64,000 nt of DNA from an uncultured Bifidobacteriaceae bacterium (GTDB lineage Bacteria; Actinomycetota; Acidimicrobiia; IMCC26256; PALSA-555): assembly GCA_964532485.1 (NCBI GenBank), contig CAZHKE010000001.1, forward strand, positions 68,358 through 132,357, given 5' to 3'. The position numbers were made by a program, and so were the translations under genes. A model generated the notes under the pieces. That model was not told where the DNA came from. It did not search any database and worked only from the letters and a program-made list of their open reading frames with translations. Positions within the stretch are counted from its first letter, which is position 1, and each line of letters starts with the position of its first letter. Positions 11,652 to 48,762 of the stretch are shown here, in pieces.

Positions 11652-12802
11652 CTAGATCACGACACCCATGGCGACGAGGCCAGCCACCTCGTCGCGCGAC
11701 AGGCCCCACGCCTCGAGGACGTGCGTCTCGCGTTCGCCGGCGTGCTCGGGCGGTGCCGGGTCGGCCAACGGCGTGCCCGAGAAGCGCGGCGCGGGCGCGG
11801 GTTGAGGAACGCCCCGGATCTCACGGAACGTCGCGCGCGCCCGATTGTGCGGGTGCGATGGCGCCTCGACCGGGTCGAGGACCGGTGCCACGCACGCGTC
11901 GAAGTCGGCGAAGTGCTGCTCCCACTCGTCGCGGGTTCGCGTCCGGATCACCGTGGCGAACCGCTCGCGCAGCTCGGGCCATCCGTCACGGTCGTGCTGC
12001 TCGGGGAGGTCCTCGCCCGCGAGCTCGAGCCCTTCGAGGAGCTGCGCGTAGAACTGCGGCTCGATCGCGCCGACGGCGAGCCACCGGCCGTCGCTGGTCT
12101 CGTAGCTGTCGTACCAGGGCGAGCCCGTGTCGAGCATGTTCGTGCCCCGCGGTCCCCAGAACCCCGACGCGCGCGCCGCGTAGAACGGGGTCAGCATCAC
12201 CGCCGCGCCGTCGACCATCGCCGCGTCGACGACCTGCCCCTGACCGGTGTGCTCGCGCGCGAGGAGCGCCGCGACGATTCCGTACGCGAGCAGCATCCCG
12301 CCGCCCGCGAAGTCGGCGAGCACGTTGATCGGTGGCGTCGGCGGTGCGCCCGCGCGGCCGAGCGGCTCCAGTGCCCCGGCGATCGCGAGGTAGTCGAGAT
12401 CGTGGCCGGCCCTGTCGGCGAGCGGGCCGTCCTGGCCGTACCCGGTCAGTCGCCCGTACACCAGGCGCGGGTTGCGGCCGCGCGCGACGTCGGGGCCGAT
12501 GCCGAGGCGCTCCGCGACTCCCGGGCGGAACACCTCGAACACGGCGTCGGCTGCATCGGTGAGGCGCAGGAACGTCTCGACGCCGCTCGGTGCCTTGAGG
12601 TCGAGCCCGATCGCGGCCTTCGATCGGTACATCGCGTTCGTCGCCGGCGTGGAGGCGTCGATCGCGCGCACCGCGTCGACGCGGTCGACGCGCAGCACCT
12701 CGGCGCCGAGGTCGGCGAGCAGCATCCCGCAGAAGGGACCGGGCCCCAGCCCCAGGAGCTCGACGACCCGCACACCCTCGAGCGGCCCGCCTCGCCCGAG
12801 GC

Positions 12803-12806
<4 letters not shown>
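11652..12806 (-). CDS. mcr: Alpha-methylacyl-CoA racemase (family III CoA-transferase fold)
   Basis: 384 aa with GVRVVELLGLGPGPFCGMLLADLGAEVLRVDR, GQVVDAAMVDG, AVGAIEPQFYA, PAPRFS. These blocks match my recollection of M. tuberculosis Mcr (Rv1143). Confidence 0.8.
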
Positions 12807-14735
<1,929 letters not shown>

Positions 14736-21669: not shown

Positions 21670-22478
21670 GTCACGGCGTCGATCTCGGTGCCGGCGACCA
21701 GGAGTACCGCATCGCCGACGACGACGAGACCGCGGCGCGCGAGCACGAGCGGCTCCGCATCCTCGGGCGGTGGCGCGACCCGTCGACGATCACCGCGCTC
21801 GAGGCCACCGGCGTCGGCCCCGGCTGGCGTTGCCTCGAGGTCGGTGCCGGCGCCGGGACGACGTCGGCGTGGATGGCAGCGCGCGTGGGTGAGACCGGCT
21901 CGGTGCTGTCGACCGACGTCGACCTGCGCTTCCACGGCCCCGCTGTCGGCAACACCGAGATCCGCGGCCACGACATCACGCGCGATCCGGTCCCGGAAGG
22001 CACGTTCGATCTCGTCCACGCCCGCGCGGTGCTCCAGCACGTCGCGGCTCGCGAGGCGGCGCTCGATCGAATGATCGCGGCGCTGAAGCCGGGCGGCTGG
22101 ATCGTCGTCGAGGAAGCCGACATGCGGGCCTTCGAAGCGCAGCCACTCCCCGAGCCGCTCGGCGCGCTGCACCGGATGATGGTCGCCGCCGCGGCGCAGC
22201 AGGTTTACCGGGAGCCCAACTTCGGGACCCGGCTGCTCCGCCTCTACCAGGAGCACGGTCTGGCCGAGGTGCACGCCCGGGGGGTCGTGGAGACGATGCG
22301 CGCGGGCGAGGACAGCGGGGAGTGGTGGTTCCTCGCGGTCGAGCACGTGCGTGATCGCATCGTCGATGCCGGCGTGATGTCGGGCGACGACTTCGATGCG
22401 GCGCTGGCGATCGCCCGCACGCCCGGCTTCCTGATGCTCGGGCCCACGTCGATCCAGGTCTCGGGCCGCAAGCCGTGA
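21666..22478 (+). CDS. Class I SAM-dependent methyltransferase
   Basis: GTG 21666 overlaps the Rieske stop (GTGA). Motif I CLEVGAGAGTTSAWMA, motif post-I STDVD, and LKPGGWIVVEE. Confidence 0.75.
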   Translation: MSHGVDLGAGDQEYRIADDDETAAREHERLRILGRWRDPSTITALEATGVGPGWRCLEVGAGAGTTSAWMAARVGETGSVLSTDVDLRFHGPAVGNTEIRGHDITRDPVPEGTFDLVHARAVLQHVAAREAALDRMIAALKPGGWIVVEEADMRAFEAQPLPEPLGALHRMMVAAAAQQVYREPNFGTRLLRLYQEHGLAEVHARGVVETMRAGEDSGEWWFLAVEHVRDRIVDAGVMSGDDFDAALAIARTPGFLMLGPTSIQVSGRKP

Positions 22479-23068
22479 CGTCGGCGCGAGTCGCGACTCG
22501 GCGGGCGCTCCGTGCCGACGCGGCGGCAACGCGGCGGCGCGTCATCGACGGCGCGGTGGAGCTGGCTCGCGAGCGGCCCTTGGCCGAGCTGACGATGCGG
22601 GACATCGCCCGCACGGCCGAGGTATCGGTCGCGACTGCCTACACCTACTTCTCGTCGAAGGAGCACGTCCTCGCCGAGGCGTACCTCGACGGCGTCGAGT
22701 CGCTCACCGAGAGCGTGCGCGCCCGACCGCCGTCTGGAGCAACCGCGGCCGAGCGGGTCGCGGCCGTGATGCGGCGTGCCATGCGGGGCGCGGCCTCGAC
22801 CGGCGACGTCGTGCAGGCTGCCGCGATCGCGCTGGCGTCGTCGGACCCCGCGGTCGCCCCGCTCCGGCCGCTCGCGGACGAGGCGTTCGAGGAGTGGTTC
22901 ACGATCGCCCTCCGCGGCGCGACGATCGCCGACCACGACGAGGTCGTGCAGCTGCTACAGCTCACGATGTTCGCGTCGTTCGTCGCGGTGGCCCACGGGC
23001 GGCTGTCGCTCACCGCGAGCGGCCGTCTCCTCGACCTCGCAGTGCGCCGCCTCGTCGTCGAGACCTGA
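22475..23068 (+). CDS. TetR-family transcriptional regulator
   Basis: 197 aa with HTH region LTMRDIARTAEVSVATAYTYFSSKEHVL. GTG overlaps the upstream stop. The HTH and the C-terminal RLLDLAVRRL loosely resemble KstR as I recall it. Confidence 0.85.
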   Translation: MTSARVATRRALRADAAATRRRVIDGAVELARERPLAELTMRDIARTAEVSVATAYTYFSSKEHVLAEAYLDGVESLTESVRARPPSGATAAERVAAVMRRAMRGAASTGDVVQAAAIALASSDPAVAPLRPLADEAFEEWFTIALRGATIADHDEVVQLLQLTMFASFVAVAHGRLSLTASGRLLDLAVRRLVVET

Positions 23069-28868: not shown

Positions 28869-29837
28869 TCACGGCTCGACCACGACCTTGATCGCGCCCG
28901 CAGCACGGTCGCCGGCGACGCGGAACGCCTCGGCGGCGGCATCGAGTGGGAAGCGATGGGTGATCAGCGTCCCGGCGATCAGGCGGTCGGACGCCAGGAG
29001 CATCGCCGCGTCGCCGAGGTCGGTGCCGTGCTCGTGCGCGCCGTACGTGAACGACCACTGGAAGCCCAGCTCCTTCATCAGGGCGGGCACGCTCGGGATG
29101 GCCACCGGAGACCAGTGGGTGCTGAGGAACACGACGCGCCCGCCGGGACGGCACAGGCGCACCGCGGTCTCGAGCGCCGACTCCGTGCCCGCGCACTCGA
29201 AGACGACGTCGTACTCACCGTCGGCCGGCACGGCGCCGAGCCGCTCACCCGCGATTCGCTGGGACTCGTGTCGCGCGACGAGTCCGACCTCGGCGGCCGA
29301 GCCGCGCGCGGCTGCGATCGTCGCGAGACCGATCCCGCCGGCACCGATCACGGCGACGCGCTCACCGCCCGAGAGCCCCGCGAGGCGCACCGCGTGCGTC
29401 GCGACGCCGAGGGGTTCGACGAGGCAGGCGGTCGCGGGCGTGAGGCCCTCGGGCAGGGGCACGATCGATGCCGGGTCCACGGCCACCGCGTCGGCCATGC
29501 CGCCGTCGGTGGAGACGCCGTGGATGCGCTGTGAGCCGGTGCGGCAGCGGTAGCCGTACCCGGCGCTGCACTGGTCGCACGTGCCGCACGGCCGGTTGGG
29601 GTCGACTGCGACCGCCGTCCCGTCGTCGAGCAGGCCCGCGAACTCGTGTCCGAGGATCTGGGGGAGCGGCCCGTACTCGATCAGGTGCAGGTCGGAGCCG
29701 CAGATGCTCGCCGACTGCACCCGCACGATGACCTGCTCACCATCGGCTGGCGGATCCGGGACGTCGACGACTTCGATCCCGCGCTCGGCGCTGCGGACGC
29801 CGCGCATCTCACGCGGGTTTGCGTCGAAGAACCACAC
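28869..29837 (-). CDS. Zinc-dependent alcohol dehydrogenase (MDR family)
   Basis: 322 aa with ICGSDLH, GHEFAG, structural-zinc CGTCDQCSAG..C and Rossmann VIGAGGIG. Confidence 0.85.
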   Translation of the reverse strand: MWFFDANPREMRGVRSAERGIEVVDVPDPPADGEQVIVRVQSASICGSDLHLIEYGPLPQILGHEFAGLLDDGTAVAVDPNRPCGTCDQCSAGYGYRCRTGSQRIHGVSTDGGMADAVAVDPASIVPLPEGLTPATACLVEPLGVATHAVRLAGLSGGERVAVIGAGGIGLATIAAARGSAAEVGLVARHESQRIAGERLGAVPADGEYDVVFECAGTESALETAVRLCRPGGRVVFLSTHWSPVAIPSVPALMKELGFQWSFTYGAHEHGTDLGDAAMLLASDRLIAGTLITHRFPLDAAAEAFRVAGDRAAGAIKVVVEP

Positions 29838-29867
29838 CTGACGTGGGTCTGCGACGCAAGAGTGTCA

Positions 29868-31271
29868 TCAGCCGCCGGTGAGCTCGGTGGGCTCGATGCC
29901 GAGGTAGCGCTCGAGGTTGCGGTGGAGGCTCTCGATGCGCATCTCCTCGCGCGACAGCGTGAGGTGGGTGAACCCGGGCTGGTGGAGCCCTCGCTGCGCT
30001 CGCTGGAGGTTCTCGACGTCCTGGTTGAACACGACGCCGAGGTCCGCGGTCTCGGCGTCCATGGTCACGTCGACCGGTCGGTCGCGGGGCGCATCCCGTG
30101 GGACACGCGAGAAGTAGAGGAGATCCATCAGGCAGTCGTCGGGTGTCGCGCCGGGACGCATCCGGAGCAGGGCGAGGCTCTCGGCCAGGAACACCGGTGA
30201 GATGTTGGGGAAGCAGTTGTACTGGTGGAGGTCGGTGACCTGCTCGTCGGTGAAGTCGTCGAGGTCGACGCCCAGCTCGACGGCGCGCTCGCGGATGAGC
30301 CGCGCCAGCAGGGTGCGCATCGACTCGCCGGGCTCGCGCTCGGGCACCGGTCCCGGGTCGCCGCCGCTCGGTCGACCCACGCGCTCGCCCTGCGTCGCGC
30401 AGAACGACTCCCAGATCTGTTGATCGGACGCTCCGTCGCGCAGGCGCGGGCTCGGGATCCCGTAGGGCTGGTTGAGCCGGCCGTGCCGCTCCCACACCTC
30501 CTGCGGACCGTTCACGTCGTCGGTCGACGGGATCATCTGCCGGTGGATGCCCTGCACGTGGTACGTCTCGCTGAACGCGTCGATGCCCGTCTTCCAGTTG
30601 CACGCCAGCGGCACGGTCACGATGGCGCGGCACGCGAACTCGTCGGTGCGCAGCCACGCCGTCTCGGCGGGCACGGGAGCAAGGAAGTCGCCGAGGGGCT
30701 CGGCGTCGAGGTCGAGGTTCACGAAGACCATCGGGCCCCAGGTGTCGACCTGCACCGCGCGCAGTGCGTAGTCGTCGTTCTCGATGACGCCGAAGCCCTT
30801 GCGCGACGGGACCTCGCGGAGCCGGCCGCCGAGATCCCAGCACCAGCGGTGGTACACGCAGCGGATCTCGGTGCGACCGGTGCCGGCGCCGTTGCACAGC
30901 TCGTTGCCGCGGTGCAAGCACACGTTCTGGAACGCCCGTAGCTCGCCGTCGTCGCCCCGCACGATCAGCACCGACAGCGGCCCGCACGTGTACTCGAACC
31001 AGTCGCCGGGGTCGCGCACGTGGTCGACGCTGCACGCCACCTGCCAGACGTGGGGCCAGAGGTGCTCGGTCTCGAGCGCGGCCCACTCGGGGGACGTGTA
31101 GCGCGACGCCGGCACGAGCACGGGCCTGCGCCGGTCGCTCACCGTCCCGATCGTGGAGCCGACCGGTGCCTCCTCCGTCACCTCGCCCGCGTAGGCAGGG
31201 CCGCCCGGTCGGGCATCTCGGATCCTGACCTCGCGGGTCCGGGGCGCCGGGGCCTGGGTCACGGGGTGCAC
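29868..31271 (-). CDS. Rieske [2Fe-2S] oxygenase, alpha-subunit-like
   Basis: 467 aa with CLHRGNEL...CVYHRWCWDLGG. The catalytic domain contains H..H-type motifs (YHVQGIH). GTG start at 31271; exact start uncertain. Confidence 0.8.
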   Translation of the reverse strand: MHPVTQAPAPRTREVRIRDARPGGPAYAGEVTEEAPVGSTIGTVSDRRRPVLVPASRYTSPEWAALETEHLWPHVWQVACSVDHVRDPGDWFEYTCGPLSVLIVRGDDGELRAFQNVCLHRGNELCNGAGTGRTEIRCVYHRWCWDLGGRLREVPSRKGFGVIENDDYALRAVQVDTWGPMVFVNLDLDAEPLGDFLAPVPAETAWLRTDEFACRAIVTVPLACNWKTGIDAFSETYHVQGIHRQMIPSTDDVNGPQEVWERHGRLNQPYGIPSPRLRDGASDQQIWESFCATQGERVGRPSGGDPGPVPEREPGESMRTLLARLIRERAVELGVDLDDFTDEQVTDLHQYNCFPNISPVFLAESLALLRMRPGATPDDCLMDLLYFSRVPRDAPRDRPVDVTMDAETADLGVVFNQDVENLQRAQRGLHQPGFTHLTLSREEMRIESLHRNLERYLGIEPTELTGG

Positions 31272-31285
31272 CCTACGGCGACATC

Positions 31286-31298
31286 TGACGCCTCGTCA
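31286..31298. promoter_or_regulatory. Candidate operator TGACG-CCT-CGTCA
   Basis: Full 15-bp palindrome CTGACGcctCGTCAG, 15 nt upstream of the Rieske GTG (minus strand), in the 133-bp divergent region. Confidence 0.4.
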
Positions 31299-31302
31299 GG
31301 CT

Positions 31303-31316
31303 TGAAACACGTTCCA
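31303..31316. promoter_or_regulatory. KstR-type box TGAAACACGTTCCA
   Basis: Fits the published KstR consensus TnnAACnnGTTnnA at all 8 specified positions. Lies 4 nt from the TGACG palindrome and 89 nt upstream of binding-protein gene 31405. Confidence 0.45.
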
Positions 31317-32820: not shown

Positions 32821-32834
32821 TGAAACGTGTTCCA
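32821..32834. promoter_or_regulatory. KstR-type box TGAAACGTGTTCCA
   Basis: Second perfect fit to TnnAACnnGTTnnA, 26 nt upstream of ATG 32860. Shares the extended context GCTTGAAAC..GTTCCA with the box at 31303. Confidence 0.45.
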
Positions 32835-43958: not shown

Positions 43959-45176
43959 TCAGAGCGCCAGGTCGTACAGGGCGACGGCGTTCTCACCCAG
44001 GATCTTGCGCCGCGCGCCCTCGTCGAGGGGCGCGAGGTGCTCGCGCAGCTCGTCGACCACGCCCGCGTGGTACTCGGGGTGCGGGTAGTCGGTCGCCCAC
44101 AGCAGCCGATCGGCGCCGAGGAAGTCCGCGCACGCCGCCAGGTTCCACTCCTCGGCCTCGAAGCAGACCCAGCACTGGCGCTTGAAGTACTCGCTCGGGA
44201 GCAGCGACAGCCTGCGCCGCTCGAGCGGGAACGCCTCGACCTGCTCGTCCATGCGCTCGAGCTGCGTCGGCACCCACCCCCCGCCCGACTCCAGGAACAC
44301 CAGCTTGAGGTCGGGGAAGCGCTCGCAGACGCCGCCCATGAGCAGCCGGCCCATCGTCACGATCATGTCGACGGCGTTGCCGACGGCCTGCCCGAGCGCC
44401 GAGCCACCGTGCAGCTCGTCCGTCGCCATGTTCGTGACCGACATGTTCTCCGACTCGGCGACGAGCCCGAACTTCCGGCATGCCCCCGGCGTGTCGACGT
44501 GCACGCCGGGGTGGAACGCCACGGGCACGGCCAGCTCCTGCATCGCGGCCCAGAACGGGTCGTACGCCCGATGATGCAGGGGCAGCTCGCGTCCGTCACC
44601 GTCCGTGAGGTACGACGACGGGCGGAGGAAGACGGCGACGAGGCCCCGCTCGCCGCACGCGCGCTGCGCCTCGGTGATCGCGCGGTCGACGTCCTGGAGC
44701 GGCACGGCGGCGACGCCGAACAGGCGCGTCGGATGCGGCGCGCAGAAGTCGGCAACCCAGTCGTTGTACGCGCGCTGGCAGTCGGCGACGAAGTCGATGT
44801 CGTGCAGCGCCGGGATCGGGTCGCACGGGCCGAAGAACATGCCCTGCGACGGGTACACGACGGCGGCGTCGATCCTGTCGGCATCGAGGTCGGCGACGCG
44901 CGCGTCGGGGTCGTGACCGCCCGGGACACGTAGCGATGCCATGAGGTCGTAGAGCTGCTGGGGCGTCAGTCCGACCGCGGCGGCCATCTGGTCGTGCAGC
45001 TCGCGGCCGCCACCGCGGACGACCCCACCCGTCCAGATGGTCTCGTAGCACTCGTCCTCGGTGACCTTGCGGGGGATCCAGTCGCCCCAGCGGTCGGCGT
45101 CCATCCGCGCCGACCAGCAGTCCTCGGGCTCCATGACGTGCCCGTCCGCGTCGACGACCAGCCCCGCGTCACCCAT
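43959..45176 (-). CDS. Amidohydrolase_2 (ACMSD-type TIM-barrel metal hydrolase/decarboxylase) family protein
   Basis: 405 aa with VVDADGHVMEP at the N-terminus, FHPG, and LWATDYPHPE near the C-terminus. Confidence 0.8.
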   Translation of the reverse strand: MGDAGLVVDADGHVMEPEDCWSARMDADRWGDWIPRKVTEDECYETIWTGGVVRGGGRELHDQMAAAVGLTPQQLYDLMASLRVPGGHDPDARVADLDADRIDAAVVYPSQGMFFGPCDPIPALHDIDFVADCQRAYNDWVADFCAPHPTRLFGVAAVPLQDVDRAITEAQRACGERGLVAVFLRPSSYLTDGDGRELPLHHRAYDPFWAAMQELAVPVAFHPGVHVDTPGACRKFGLVAESENMSVTNMATDELHGGSALGQAVGNAVDMIVTMGRLLMGGVCERFPDLKLVFLESGGGWVPTQLERMDEQVEAFPLERRRLSLLPSEYFKRQCWVCFEAEEWNLAACADFLGADRLLWATDYPHPEYHAGVVDELREHLAPLDEGARRKILGENAVALYDLAL

Positions 45177-45179
45177 GAG

Positions 45180-46127
45180 TCAGCGCTGCAGGTGCGGGGC
45201 GACGTCGCGGTGGAAGGCGTCCAGCTGGTCGAGGAGCTCCTGGAGCGACCGGTTGCGGAAGCGCACCTGGAGGTGGCTGACGCCCATCGACCCGAACTCG
45301 TTGAGCTTCTCGGCGATCATGTCGGATGAGCCCGCGAGCGTCTGGTCGCCCACGTCCCACCCAGGGTCGCCGACATAGAGGAACTCGGTGATCGTGCCCA
45401 GGTCGATGGGCTCGTCGCCGACGGCGCGCTTGCGCTCCTCGAGCAAGAACGCGATCTGATCGGGCATCTCGTCGCGGGGGGTGCCCTGGGGGAGCCACCC
45501 GTCGCCCTTGACCGCGGCGCGCCGCAGCGCTGCCTTCGACGAGCCGCCGACCCAGATCGGCAGGTGTGCCTGCACCGGGCGCGGTGCCACCCCCGCGTCC
45601 TTGATGTGCCCGTACCGCGGCGAGTCGATGTCGGGGTACTCGTCGGTGAGCGCGGCGCGGACCACGTCGATGGCGTCGTCGGTCACTCGGCCTCGTTCGG
45701 CGAAGTCGAAGCCCAACAGCGCGAACTCGCCCTCGAGGTGCCCGGCGCCGACGCCGAGGATGGCACGCCCGCCCGACAGCTCGTCGAGGGTCATGAACGA
45801 CTTCGCGGTGTGCAGCGGGTGGCGGTAGCTCATCACGTACACGTGCGACAGGACGCGCACGTTCTCGGTGAGCGCTGCGATCCACGCGAGCGTCGCGACC
45901 GTGTCGAACCACGTGGTCCGCATGTGCGCGTCGAGCGGCTTCGGCACTGCGAGGTGGTCGCACACCGCCACGTAGAAGAAGCCGGTCTCGTCGGCCTTTT
46001 GCACGAGCTGACGCAGCTCGTCCGCGCCGGCGTCGGCCTCCCAGTCCTCGACGAACGTCTTCGACTTCGCCTGGATCTGGAGCTGCATCCCGTAGACGAG
46101 CCGATCCGACGGGACGATCGTCGTCAT
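45180..46127 (-). CDS. LLM-class (luciferase-like) F420/flavin-dependent oxidoreductase
   Basis: ATG 46127 (ATGA overlap with the esterase stop) gives MTTIVPSDRLVYGMQLQIQ...LGVGAGHLEGEF...PIWVGGSS. Confidence 0.75.
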   Translation of the reverse strand: MTTIVPSDRLVYGMQLQIQAKSKTFVEDWEADAGADELRQLVQKADETGFFYVAVCDHLAVPKPLDAHMRTTWFDTVATLAWIAALTENVRVLSHVYVMSYRHPLHTAKSFMTLDELSGGRAILGVGAGHLEGEFALLGFDFAERGRVTDDAIDVVRAALTDEYPDIDSPRYGHIKDAGVAPRPVQAHLPIWVGGSSKAALRRAAVKGDGWLPQGTPRDEMPDQIAFLLEERKRAVGDEPIDLGTITEFLYVGDPGWDVGDQTLAGSSDMIAEKLNEFGSMGVSHLQVRFRNRSLQELLDQLDAFHRDVAPHLQR

Positions 46128-47101
46128 CGCTCGCGCCCCTGGCCCGAGAGGTGCGCGCGCATCGCGTCGAAGGCGACGCGCTGGGCGTGCTTGGCGCCAT
46201 CGAGCGCGGCGTCCATGTTGAAGAACCCGTGGAACATCCCCGGCGCTCGGTACAGGACGACCGGGACGCCGGCCTCGGCCAGGAGCGCGCCATAGTGCTC
46301 GGCCTCGTCGCGCAGCGGGTCCATCTCCGCGGTGACGATGCACGTGGGGGGCAGACCCTCGAGCGACTCGGCGAGGTGCGGCGACACGTCCGGGTGCTCG
46401 CCCGCCTCCTCGTGGGGGAGGTACTGCTCCCGGTACCACTCCATCTGCGCGGTCGTCAGGAAGTAGCCGGTCGCATTCTCGGTCTTGGACCGGTGCTCGC
46501 TGCGTGTCCCCGACGAGTCGATCACCGGGTAGATCAGGAGCTGGAACGCCAGGGATGGGCCGCCGCGATCGCGAGCTCGCTGAGCCACGACCGCGGTGAG
46601 GTTCCCGCCCGCGCTGTCGCCCGCGACGGTGAGCCGCTCCGGGTCGATGCCCAGCTCGTCGACGTGCTCGGCCGTCCAGGACAGCGCCGCCCAGGCGTCG
46701 TCGGCGGCCGCGGGGTACTTGTGCTCCGGGGCGAGCCGGTAGTCGACCGACACGACGACGGCGCCGAGCTCGTTGGCGATCCGGCGGCACGCGTTGTCGT
46801 GGCTGTCGAGCCCGCAGATCACCCAGCCCCCACCGTGGAGGTACACGACACCCGGCTTCGGGCCGGCGTCGGGCGCCGCGGCTTCGCCGCGCGCGGGGTG
46901 GTAGATCCGGACGGGGATGTCGCCCGCGGGTCCGGGGATCGAGCGGTCCTCGACCGAGCCCATCTCCTCGGTGGGGTCGATCTTCGGCATGGCGTCGGAC
47001 TGGGCGCGCACCTCGGCCGCGTCCGTGCCGGGCCCGCTGATGCGCGGGAAGACCGACTCCATCAGCTCGATGATCGGTTCGGCCGCAGGATCCAGGGGCA
47101 C
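46124..47101 (-). CDS. Alpha/beta-hydrolase esterase/lipase (HSL family)
   Basis: In-frame GTG 47101 gives MPLDPAAEPIIELM...; YLHGGGWVI oxyanion motif, GDSAGGNL, HGF. The longer track ORF would overlap the divergent ligase gene. Confidence 0.8.
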   Translation of the reverse strand: MPLDPAAEPIIELMESVFPRISGPGTDAAEVRAQSDAMPKIDPTEEMGSVEDRSIPGPAGDIPVRIYHPARGEAAAPDAGPKPGVVYLHGGGWVICGLDSHDNACRRIANELGAVVVSVDYRLAPEHKYPAAADDAWAALSWTAEHVDELGIDPERLTVAGDSAGGNLTAVVAQRARDRGGPSLAFQLLIYPVIDSSGTRSEHRSKTENATGYFLTTAQMEWYREQYLPHEEAGEHPDVSPHLAESLEGLPPTCIVTAEMDPLRDEAEHYGALLAEAGVPVVLYRAPGMFHGFFNMDAALDGAKHAQRVAFDAMRAHLSGQGRER

Positions 47102-47125
47102 GGCGCGGGAGGCTAGCGGGGCACC

Positions 47126-47138
47126 TGACGGGGCGTCA
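47126..47138. promoter_or_regulatory. Candidate operator TGACG-GGG-CGTCA
   Basis: Full 17-bp palindrome CCTGACGgggCGTCAGG in the 44-bp divergent gap, 8 nt before the ligase GTG 47146 and 25 nt before the esterase GTG 47101. Confidence 0.45.
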
Positions 47139-47145
47139 GGAGTCA

Positions 47146-48762
47146 GTGGGCCTCGGTAGCCTCCCGGCCGTGGGCTCCGATCTTGCCGGGCTGACGATCC
47201 CGGGTCTCGTGCGGCGTGGGGCACGCGAGTTCGGCGACCGCGAGGCGCTGGTCGACGAGGACGGCGCGGTCCGCCTCGACTTCGGGGGCCTCGAGGAGGC
47301 CATGGTCGCCTCCACGCGGGCCGCGATCGCTGCCGGGCTCCAACCCGGCGACCGCGCCTCGATCTGGGCGCCCAACATGCACCAGTGGATCCGAGCCGCG
47401 CTCGGCATCCTCGGTGCGGGTGGAGTGCTGGTACCGCTCAACACCCGCTTCAAGGGTGCCGAGGCCGCGTACGTCCTCGGCAAGTCGCGCGCTCGCATGC
47501 TGTTCACCGTCACCGACTTCCTCGACACCGACTACGTCGCGATGCTGCGGGCGGCCGAAGCCGATCTCCCCGGCCTCGAGCAGATCGTCGTGCTGCGCGG
47601 CGACGCTCCCGAGGGGACGATCGGCTGGGACGACCACGTGGCCGGCGGCGAGACCGTGTCGGAGCCCGACGCGAGCGCGCGCATCGAGGCGGTGAGCCCG
47701 GACACGCTGTCCGACCTGATCTTCACGTCGGGCACGACCGGCAGTCCCAAGGGCGTCATGGTCACGCACGGCCAGTCGGTGCGCGTCTACGAGGCCTGGA
47801 CCGACGTCATCGGTCTGCGCGAGGGCGACCGCTACCTCATCGTCAACCCGTTCTTCCACGCCTTCGGGTACAAGGCCGGGTGGATGTCGTGCATCCTGCG
47901 CGGCGCCACGATCGTGCCGTTCGCGGTGTTCGACGTGCCGAGCGTGCTCGAGATGGTGGCCACGGAGCGCATCACGGTGCTGCCCGGGCCGCCGACGCTG
48001 CTCCAGGGCATCCTCGACTTCCCCGACCGCGACCGCTACGACCTCTCGTCCCTTCGGCTCACGGTGACCGGCGCCGCGGCCGTCCCCGTGACGCTCGTCG
48101 AGCGCCTGCGCGACGAGATGACGTTCGAGACGATCATCACCGGATACGGGCTCACCGAGTCGACCGGCACCACCGCGATGTGCCGCCACGACGACGATCC
48201 CGAGACGATCGCGCAGTGGTCGGGCCGGGCCATCCCCGACACCGAGCTGCGCGTCGTCGACGACGACGGCGCCGAGGTGCCGCGTGGCGAGCCGGGGGAG
48301 GTCGTGACCCGCGGCTACCACGTGATGCAGGGCTACTTCGACGAGCCCGAGGAGACAGCCGCGACGATCGACGCGGACGGGTGGTTGCACACCGGCGACA
48401 TCGGCGTGATGGACGAGCGCGGCTACGTGCGCATCACGGACCGCAAGAAGGACATGTTCATCGTCGGGGGCTTCAACGCCTACCCGGCCGAGATCGAGAG
48501 CCTCCTGCTCGGCAACGACCAGCTCAGCCAGGCCGCGGTCGTCGGCGTCCCCGACGACCGCATGGGCGAGGTCGGCGTCGCGTTCGTCGTGCCCCGCCCC
48601 GGCGCCACCGTCGACCCCGCCGACGTCGTCGCCTGGGCACGCGAGCACATGGCCAACTACAAGGTGCCCCGCCTGGTCGAGGTCGTCGACGAGCTGCCCC
48701 TCAACGCCAGTGGCAAGGTGCTCAAGTACGAGCTGCGCGAGCGGGCGGCTGCGCTCAGCTGA
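47146..48762 (+). CDS. Acyl-CoA synthetase (FadD-like)
   Basis: 538 aa with IFTSGTTGSPKGVMVTH, GYGLTESTG, and C-terminal GKVLKYELR. Confidence 0.85.
   Translation: MGLGSLPAVGSDLAGLTIPGLVRRGAREFGDREALVDEDGAVRLDFGGLEEAMVASTRAAIAAGLQPGDRASIWAPNMHQWIRAALGILGAGGVLVPLNTRFKGAEAAYVLGKSRARMLFTVTDFLDTDYVAMLRAAEADLPGLEQIVVLRGDAPEGTIGWDDHVAGGETVSEPDASARIEAVSPDTLSDLIFTSGTTGSPKGVMVTHGQSVRVYEAWTDVIGLREGDRYLIVNPFFHAFGYKAGWMSCILRGATIVPFAVFDVPSVLEMVATERITVLPGPPTLLQGILDFPDRDRYDLSSLRLTVTGAAAVPVTLVERLRDEMTFETIITGYGLTESTGTTAMCRHDDDPETIAQWSGRAIPDTELRVVDDDGAEVPRGEPGEVVTRGYHVMQGYFDEPEETAATIDADGWLHTGDIGVMDERGYVRITDRKKDMFIVGGFNAYPAEIESLLLGNDQLSQAAVVGVPDDRMGEVGVAFVVPRPGATVDPADVVAWAREHMANYKVPRLVEVVDELPLNASGKVLKYELRERAAALS

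Follow-up and report, generated by a model that had tools for sequence, protein, structure and literature searches.

What does a perfect 17-bp palindrome do in the narrow gap between two divergent catabolic operons, and which protein reads it? The question is raised by the sequence CCTGACGgggCGTCAGG at positions 47124-47140 of the 64-kb stretch of contig CAZHKE010000001.1 analyzed here (hereafter the window), which lies on contig C1 of the genome under study, G000 (C numbers denote contigs). As argued below, its inner part CTGACG-N3-CGTCAG (the N3 site; the same half-sites separated by 4 bp are called N4) is probably the operator of a dimeric TetR-family repressor, TetR-A, which is encoded outside the window on another contig, C57. 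For gene calling, a codon-usage program was trained on the complete assembly (3.40 Mb, 70.6% GC); the 3,142 genes it called cover 91% of the sequence.

Copies, placement and conservation of the palindrome

An earlier note, made from the letters of the window, had placed the best copy of the palindrome at 47124-47140 and two further copies of the core TGACG-N3-CGTCA at 31286-31298 and 13498-13510. The sequence was verified at these positions, and together with the core at 47126-47138 the window holds exactly three copies. Dinucleotide-preserving shuffles gave a mean of 0.19 copies and in 0/100 cases three or more, in line with the note's estimate that such a recurrence is unlikely by chance; our gene calls and Pfam assignments likewise bear out its placing of each copy in the gap of a divergent pair of catabolic genes. 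Other details had to be adjusted. The full 15-mer, CTGACG-N3-CGTCAG, is perfect in two of the three promoters, the copy at 13497-13511 deviating from it at one position. The gap between the esterase and acyl-CoA ligase genes, given as 44 bp, more likely measures 68 bp, with the ligase starting at GTG 47170 instead of GTG 47146. A lone CTGACG half-site at 29838-29843 is present as described, yet uninformative, as CTGACG/CGTCAG occurs 2,393 times in the genome, 88% of the copies being coding.

Genome-wide, TGACG-N3-CGTCA is found 11 times, with no excess over other spacers (4-18 copies for N0-N9). The comparison of intergenic with coding DNA that the earlier note had proposed gave a divided answer: the total is not raised, but intergenic DNA, 9.2% of the genome, holds nine of the 11 copies and, of the nine perfect CTGACG-N3-CGTCAG, all but one (binomial P ~4e-8). 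The exception, a 'coding' perfect 15-mer at C25:21256, is flanked by divergent amidohydrolase genes, and the call of one of the two was too long. With the half-sites in reversed order (CGTCA-Nx-TGACG), only 3 of 78 repeats are intergenic. The spacer-4 form CTGAC(G/A)-N4-CGTCAG is intergenic in 7 of 15 cases, and TGACG...CGTCA with other spacers in 24% (9% expected). Past ~19 bp the flanks of the motif, whose extended form reads a-T/C-CTGACG-nnn-CGTCAG-A/G-t, are unrelated among the copies. The sites are thus regulatory, not compositional. As a side observation, many of the repeats that have neither a 3-bp nor a 4-bp spacer stand directly after stop codons and may be terminator-like hairpins.

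Conservation points in the same direction. CTGACG-N3/4-CGTCAG was found in 38 of 41 genomes of the same order, typically with 8-23 copies (N3 and N4 combined) versus 0-2 for the reversed control; in four other families, 44 of 45 such sites fall in intergenic DNA, for the most part at a distance of 10-30 bp from a start codon. Footprinting of orthologous promoters, another check named in the earlier note, gave retained sites at all three places in the window. With at most one mismatch, the site at 47124-47140 (site 3) is kept in 13 of 28 orthologous esterase/ligase promoters, and that at 31285-31299 (site 2) in 4 of 24 orthologous Rieske oxygenase promoters, namely those of G000, two same-genus genomes and one genome of another genus. 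For the copy at 13497-13511 (site 1), 11 of 30 thiolase loci, all 11 among the 24 close orthologues, retain even the imperfect arm CGTCAC, while the spacer there reads GCC, ACC, CGC, CCC or CCT; in the site 3 promoters, too, the arms are conserved and the spacer is free. Since conserved arms around a free spacer are found in the orthologous promoters, a dimeric DNA-binding protein is the likely reader.

The dyad, 15-19 bp long, is situated 1-17 bp upstream of TANNNT -10 boxes or overlaps them, as judged from promoters predicted in the sequence. A leaderless-promoter signature (TANNNT followed by the start codon 5-9 nt later) was recognized for 20 site-direction pairs among the 68 sites examined, and the gap between site and -10 box is 9 bp in seven of these 20 promoters and 1-4 bp in another seven. 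In eight orthologous esterase promoters the layout is operator, 7-9 bp, TANNNT, 6-9 nt, start codon; orthologues of the ligase promoter have retained TAGCCT/TAGCGT at 1-17 bp past the site. For a bound protein covering the spacer/-35 region or the -10 box, a repressor would be expected and a class I or class II activator would not. The genes for the esterase, the Rieske oxygenase and TetR-A appear to be leaderless, with TANNNT 6-9 nt ahead of the start codon.

TetR-A as the candidate repressor

The earlier note had regarded the palindrome as the operator of a regulator, to which it gave no name, that coordinates several operon pairs. This reading stands, given the intergenic placement, the position on core promoters and the conservation, and the regulator now has a candidate. 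A survey of the 45 sites in the four other families, covering the genes whose transcription leads away from a site, turned up transcription factors in just two genomes, G029 and G026: a pair of orthologous TetRs, both preceded by a perfect N3 site. TetR-A is their orthologue in G000 (75% identity with the G029 protein). In G000 itself, none of the TetR_N genes (all 33 checked) is directly divergent from a perfect N3 site. The TetR-A promoter, TAACCTGACCgccCGTGAGC, holds the site CTGACC-gcc-CGTGAG, which overlaps the -10 box TAACCT and the GTG start, one of its two mismatches being the G of the start codon. Within the order, N3 sites with up to two mismatches occur upstream of TetR-A in 8 of 27 orthologue loci, and all of them are of the N3 type. 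Perfect or one-mismatch N3 sites precede the gene in G029, G026, G039, G030, G031, G001, G114, G151 and G158, of which G114, G151 and G158 represent three cases of a putative autoregulatory site in another family. Among homologue loci of public genomes, 13 of 80 carry a site (at most one mismatch) within 250 bp upstream, where ~0.1-0.2 would be expected.

The occurrence of TetR-A follows that of the sites. In the order, an orthologue was found in 24 of the 27 genomes with at least 8 sites and in 1 of the 12 with 5 or fewer. We also drew an even, class-wide sample of 151 genomes, counting as orthologues proteins with a profile E of 1e-65 or better. One or more perfect N3 sites are present in each of the 40 genomes with TetR-A, and 35 of these contain at least three (median 6.5, maximum 26); none of the 111 genomes without TetR-A exceeds two, and 86 have none. 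The split also runs through single families: in f27 TetR-A is present in 2 of 18 genomes, precisely those with 8 and 10 sites, and the division is equally clean in f24 (TetR-A in 4 of 6) and f10 (5 of 9). This co-occurrence is strong but not conclusive support, because related genomes are not independent and because TetR-A could travel with a catabolic island.

Homologues with at least 40% identity are found in many Acidimicrobiia metagenome-assembled genomes (MAGs), in MAGs labelled Myxococcota/Deltaproteobacteria and Gammaproteobacteria, and in Streptomyces. Streptomyces sp. CA-294286, with a TetR-A homologue 40% identical (L194 / G176, 3.37-3.42 Mb) and four N3 sites within 45 kb, has 21 perfect N3 sites, the control pattern giving none; of 20 sites examined, 13 fall in intergenic DNA, and the site-bearing promoters include those of amidohydrolase_2, luciferase-like monooxygenase (LLM) and aldehyde dehydrogenase (ALDH) genes, as in the G000 regulon. 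Two records with closely related proteins, L131 (CAZCUD010000011.1; TetR-A 81% identical) and L135 (CAMDCC010000229.1; 71%), are titled 'uncultured Bifidobacteriaceae bacterium' and 'Bifidobacterium breve'; these taxonomic labels are probably wrong, and L131 is the same stretch as G001:C11 of a relative.

The protein itself matches PF00440 (TetR_N) with 36.5 bits (cut-off 24) and PF19352 (TetR_C_38) with 94.9 bits. Its AlphaFold model shows the nine-helix TetR fold (pLDDT 87.5, pTM 0.80), and TetR structures came out on top in a Foldseek search with this model. The recognition helix PATFYQYF is invariant in orthologues that are 43-73% identical overall, which matches the invariance of the operator arms. 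No NCBIfam equivalog came near its cut-off, and the PDB sequences contained no close homologue (best match E = 5.5e-6).

From these observations we infer binding, repression and a ligand for TetR-A. A TetR-A dimer on a site near the -10 box would cover the spacer/-35 region and exclude RNA polymerase; at 47124-47140, one bound dimer could shut two back-to-back promoters together. Release might be brought about by a catabolic intermediate, plausibly an acyl-CoA or lipid-like compound, a guess made because of the target genes and the fold neighbors of TetR-A. The TetR-A promoter would itself belong to the regulon through its degenerate site.

Several points weigh against this assignment. The TetR-A site in G000 is degenerate (two mismatches), and 19 of the 27 orthologues in the order lack a recognizable upstream site, so autoregulation is not universal. 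A leaderless signature is recognizable at only ~1/3 of the sites. The co-occurrence could partly reflect the shared gene island in genomes that are kin, and two fragmented genomes, G005 and G021, have 3-4 N3 sites although TetR-A was not found in them. Lastly, paralogous TetRs with a similar recognition helix (TFYRYF vs TFYQYF) could bind the same half-sites.

This last point leads to the competing explanation that deserves most attention, namely that the operator is genuine but bound by another protein, be it the paralogue TetR-B (~30% identical to TetR-A), a paralogue on C11 or some further factor, with TetR-A being just one member of the regulon. Besides the similar helices and the majority of TetR-A orthologues without an upstream site, the N4 sites that flank TetR-B genes speak for it. 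However, the spacing classes split by regulator: G037, which has TetR-A only, holds three N3 and no N4 sites, while the genomes with only a TetR-B-like protein hold one N3 and seven N4 (G040), none and five (G023), none and three (G028), and none and three (G033). Moreover, the 111 genomes of the class-wide sample without TetR-A stay at two N3 sites or fewer, and no other transcription factor adjoins the 45 sites from the four other families. On balance we regard another reader as unlikely, if far from negligible. Much less credit is due to the TetR at 22475-23068, which the earlier note had suggested for a binding test and which, as the sole regulator gene identified in the 64-kb window, belongs to the same catabolic island. 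It adjoins no site, its operon promoter lacking an N3 site even at two mismatches; it is a TetR_C_20 protein with a weak KstR likeness (53.3 bits vs a cut-off of 280); and KstR-type boxes occur separately in the window. We rejected it as the binder, and its candidacy must be called very improbable.

Two readings dispense with a regulator altogether. An inverted repeat with GC-rich arms of 6-7 bp and a 3-nt loop might work by folding into a hairpin in the nucleic acid, as a terminator or in the stability or processing of RNA, or form the core of a small repeat element, and the intergenic enrichment of other TGACG...CGTCA spacings would fit this. Yet the arm sequence is invariant, with no compensatory changes, the flanks are unrelated, and the sites lie between divergent starts, upstream of leaderless -10 boxes, so most of them are presumably not transcribed; the hairpin or repeat-element interpretation was rejected on these grounds and retains a very slim probability. 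Least probable of all is that two codon-friendly hexamers came together repeatedly by chance in a genome of such GC content. This reading would agree with a genome count no higher than that of other spacings and with CTG-ACG and CGT-CAG being favored codons, but it is refuted by the intergenic placement and by the conservation in orthologous promoters, as well as by the copy numbers relative to the reversed control across the order.

With TetR-A thus preferred as the reader of the N3 sites, the N4 sites call for a reading of their own. An N4 site, TTCCTGAC(G/A)CCAnCGTCAG, is conserved immediately after the TetR-B stop codon (region G000:C88:7073-7966) and precedes the next gene, encoding a secreted protein, in most of 22 closer orthologue loci (L071-L092). 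In genomes without TetR-A, N4 counts track TetR-B. This suggests that TetR-A and TetR-B share the half-site and differ in spacer preference. Although tentative, and in our estimate somewhat less probable than its contrary, a broader scheme can be sketched: two paralogous TetRs may read CTGACG, their targets being told apart only by the spacer (N3 for TetR-A, N4 for TetR-B), and would thereby split a lipid/CoA-catabolic network of 10-40 promoters that is conserved through the Acidimicrobiia, with the TetR-A/N3 half reaching Streptomyces and MAGs labelled Myxococcota and Gammaproteobacteria. If real, this split would be a clean case of specificity by spacer length and a natural model for the evolution of one-base-pair spacer selectivity in TetR dimers.

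Promoters of the predicted regulon

The predicted regulon in this genome amounts to about 10 promoters. The genes behind them encode thiolase, acyl-CoA ligases, acyl-CoA dehydrogenases, CoA-transferases, esterase, LLM, amidohydrolases, P450, Rieske oxygenase, ALDH and transporters. Coordinates of the sites, the putative promoter elements, the neighboring genes and the two TetR paralogues are collected in Table 1.

Table 1. Features of the N3 sites, adjoining genes and TetR paralogues; positions without a contig number refer to the window
Feature	Position	Strand	Remarks
Site 3, best copy CCTGACG-ggg-CGTCAGG	47124..47140	no strand	core 47125-47139
Putative -10 hexamer TAGCCT, esterase promoter	47110..47115	-	9 bp from operator core; 8 nt before leaderless GTG 47101
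Esterase/lipase (Abhydrolase_3)	46124..47101	-	first gene of minus-strand operon; Pfam E 2.8e-82
LLM gene, esterase operon	45180-46127	-	Pfam E 1.6e-47
Amidohydro_2 gene, esterase operon	43959-45176	-	Pfam E 4.2e-38
Putative -10 hexamer TAGCCT, acyl-CoA ligase promoter	47157..47162	+	17 bp past core, 16 bp past 17-bp palindrome; 7 nt before GTG 47170
Acyl-CoA ligase (AMP-binding)	47170..48762	+	Pfam E 2.5e-84
Site 2, CTGACG-cct-CGTCAG	31285..31299	no strand	perfect 15-mer; Rieske oxygenase / solute-binding protein gap
Putative -10 hexamer TAGGGT, Rieske promoter	31270..31275	-	9 bp from operator; 7 nt before leaderless GTG 31262
Rieske ring-hydroxylating oxygenase alpha subunit	29868..31262	-	Pfam Rieske 4.5e-17, Ring_hydroxyl_A 1.9e-21
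Zinc alcohol dehydrogenase (ADH)	28869-29837		downstream of Rieske gene
Site 1, CTGACG-gcc-CGTCAC	13497..13511	no strand	one mismatch to 15-mer; 4HBT thioesterase / thiolase gap
-10-like TAAACT, thiolase promoter	13492..13497	+	last base 13497 = first operator base; predicted from sequence
Thiolase (acetyl-CoA acyltransferase type)	13557..14735	+	46 bp downstream of site 1; Pfam Thiolase_N 2.8e-55, Thiolase_C 1.3e-39
4HBT-fold thioesterase	12803..13468	-	divergent from thiolase; Pfam 4HBT 8.2e-10
Family III CoA-transferase	11652-12806		next after thioesterase; Pfam CoA_transf_3 1.8e-82
Regulon site, thioesterase, CoA-transferase / thiolase	C1:81854
Regulon site, Rieske oxygenase, ADH / solute-binding protein	C1:99642
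Regulon site, esterase, LLM, amidohydrolase_2 / acyl-CoA ligase	C1:115482
Regulon site, in front of P450	C1:137621		N3 site ~5 kb beyond window, same contig
Regulon site, acyl-CoA dehydrogenase, CoA-transferase / glyoxalase-fold protein, amidohydrolase	C6:22563
Regulon site, arylsulfotransferase-like protein / ALDH, LLM	C7:28267
Regulon site, ABC exporter	C17:46725
Regulon site, amidohydrolase_3 / amidohydrolase_2	C25:21256
Regulon site, SBP_bac_5 / acyl-CoA ligase	C29:1752
Regulon site, between acyl-CoA dehydrogenase genes	C63:15068		neighboring gene interrupted by N
Regulon site, TetR-A's own promoter	C57:16424		degenerate site
TetR-A	G000:C57:15730-16428	-	232 aa, TetR_N + TetR_C_38; outside window, other contig
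TetR-B	G000:C88:7073-7771		~30% identical to TetR-A

Site 3 is predicted to be a single operator common to two back-to-back promoters. For the acyl-CoA ligase, the leaderless GTG 47170, in frame with a longer open reading frame from GTG 47146, is the probable start, because orthologue alignments begin at residue 9-17 of the longer frame. At the thiolase promoter, the -10-like element is retained as TAAACT/TAGACT in both same-genus orthologues aligned.

The window also contains KstR-type boxes, TGAAACACGTTCCA and TGAAACGTGTTCCA, at 31303-31316 and 32821-32834 (0.03 expected by chance), both upstream of paralogous Peripla_BP_6 solute-binding genes. The box at 31303-31316 is only 4 bp from site 2, and this intergenic region therefore appears to carry two different operators. 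On C57, the gene divergent from TetR-A is a truncated TPP-enzyme-like one, behind which comes a short-chain dehydrogenase/reductase (SDR) gene (G000:C57:16473-18217); at a distance of 4 kb, a perfect N4 site (C57:12501) separates two divergent SDR genes.

Relation to known TetR systems

A full-text literature search on the half-site strings returned no paper describing the operator or its regulator, only primers and unrelated papers. TetR-A is a candidate master regulator, with a testable operator, for many otherwise unannotated catabolic operons in the Acidimicrobiia, an abundant and almost wholly uncultured class. With the motif, the extent of the regulon can easily be worked out for every genome of this group, and the presence of the same pair in culturable Streptomyces makes genetic and biochemical tests possible.

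KstR (Rv3574) and KstR2 (Rv3557c) of Mycobacterium/Rhodococcus are the closest parallel in function: like the system proposed here, they are TetR repressors that act through short palindromes on many lipid/steroid CoA-catabolic promoters, their operators overlap core promoters and often lie in divergent intergenic regions, and the regulon has been retained throughout a large clade of actinobacteria. Their operators, TnnAACnnGTTnnA for KstR and AnCAAGnnCTTGnT for KstR2, are unrelated to CTGACG-N3-CGTCAG. As the earlier note had held, the motif is distinct from both: KstR-type boxes stand separately in the window, and the KstR2 operator shares no half-site with it. TetR-A differs in its TetR_C_38 ligand domain; it gave no match to the NCBIfam KstR model NF033703, to which TetR-B scored 28.7 bits and the window TetR 53.3 bits at the cut-off of 280, and no KstR2-type curated match.

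In structure, the TetR-A model resembles EthR (Rv3855) of M. tuberculosis most closely (Foldseek E 2e-6, TM-score 0.82, target-normalized), and EthR is also among the best PDB sequence matches of TetR-A, at only 21% identity; the score against EthR_C (PF21313), 22.0 bits, is under the cut-off of 27. Whereas a 15-bp dyad at many promoters is the proposed target here, EthR binds as a cooperative octamer to a long stretch of 55 bp at a single promoter, that of ethA. The next-best matches of the model, with target-normalized TM-scores of 0.64-0.73, are the acyl-CoA-binding proteins FadR (Bacillus subtilis YsiA, Thermus thermophilus TTHA0101) and FasR. They share the TetR fold and, as here, govern regulons of the beta-oxidation type, making an acyl-CoA effector plausible for TetR-A too. 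Their identity to TetR-A is 15-20%, their operators differ from CTGACG-N3-CGTCAG, and TetR-A matched none of the NCBIfam FadR/FasR models.

Taken together, the operator appears real and conserved and TetR-A is a well-supported candidate for its repressor, so that the pair would be, in kind, an ordinary TetR repressor-operator system. As predicted from the sequence, it would function like the KstR, KstR2 and FadR-type regulons while being a member of none of them.

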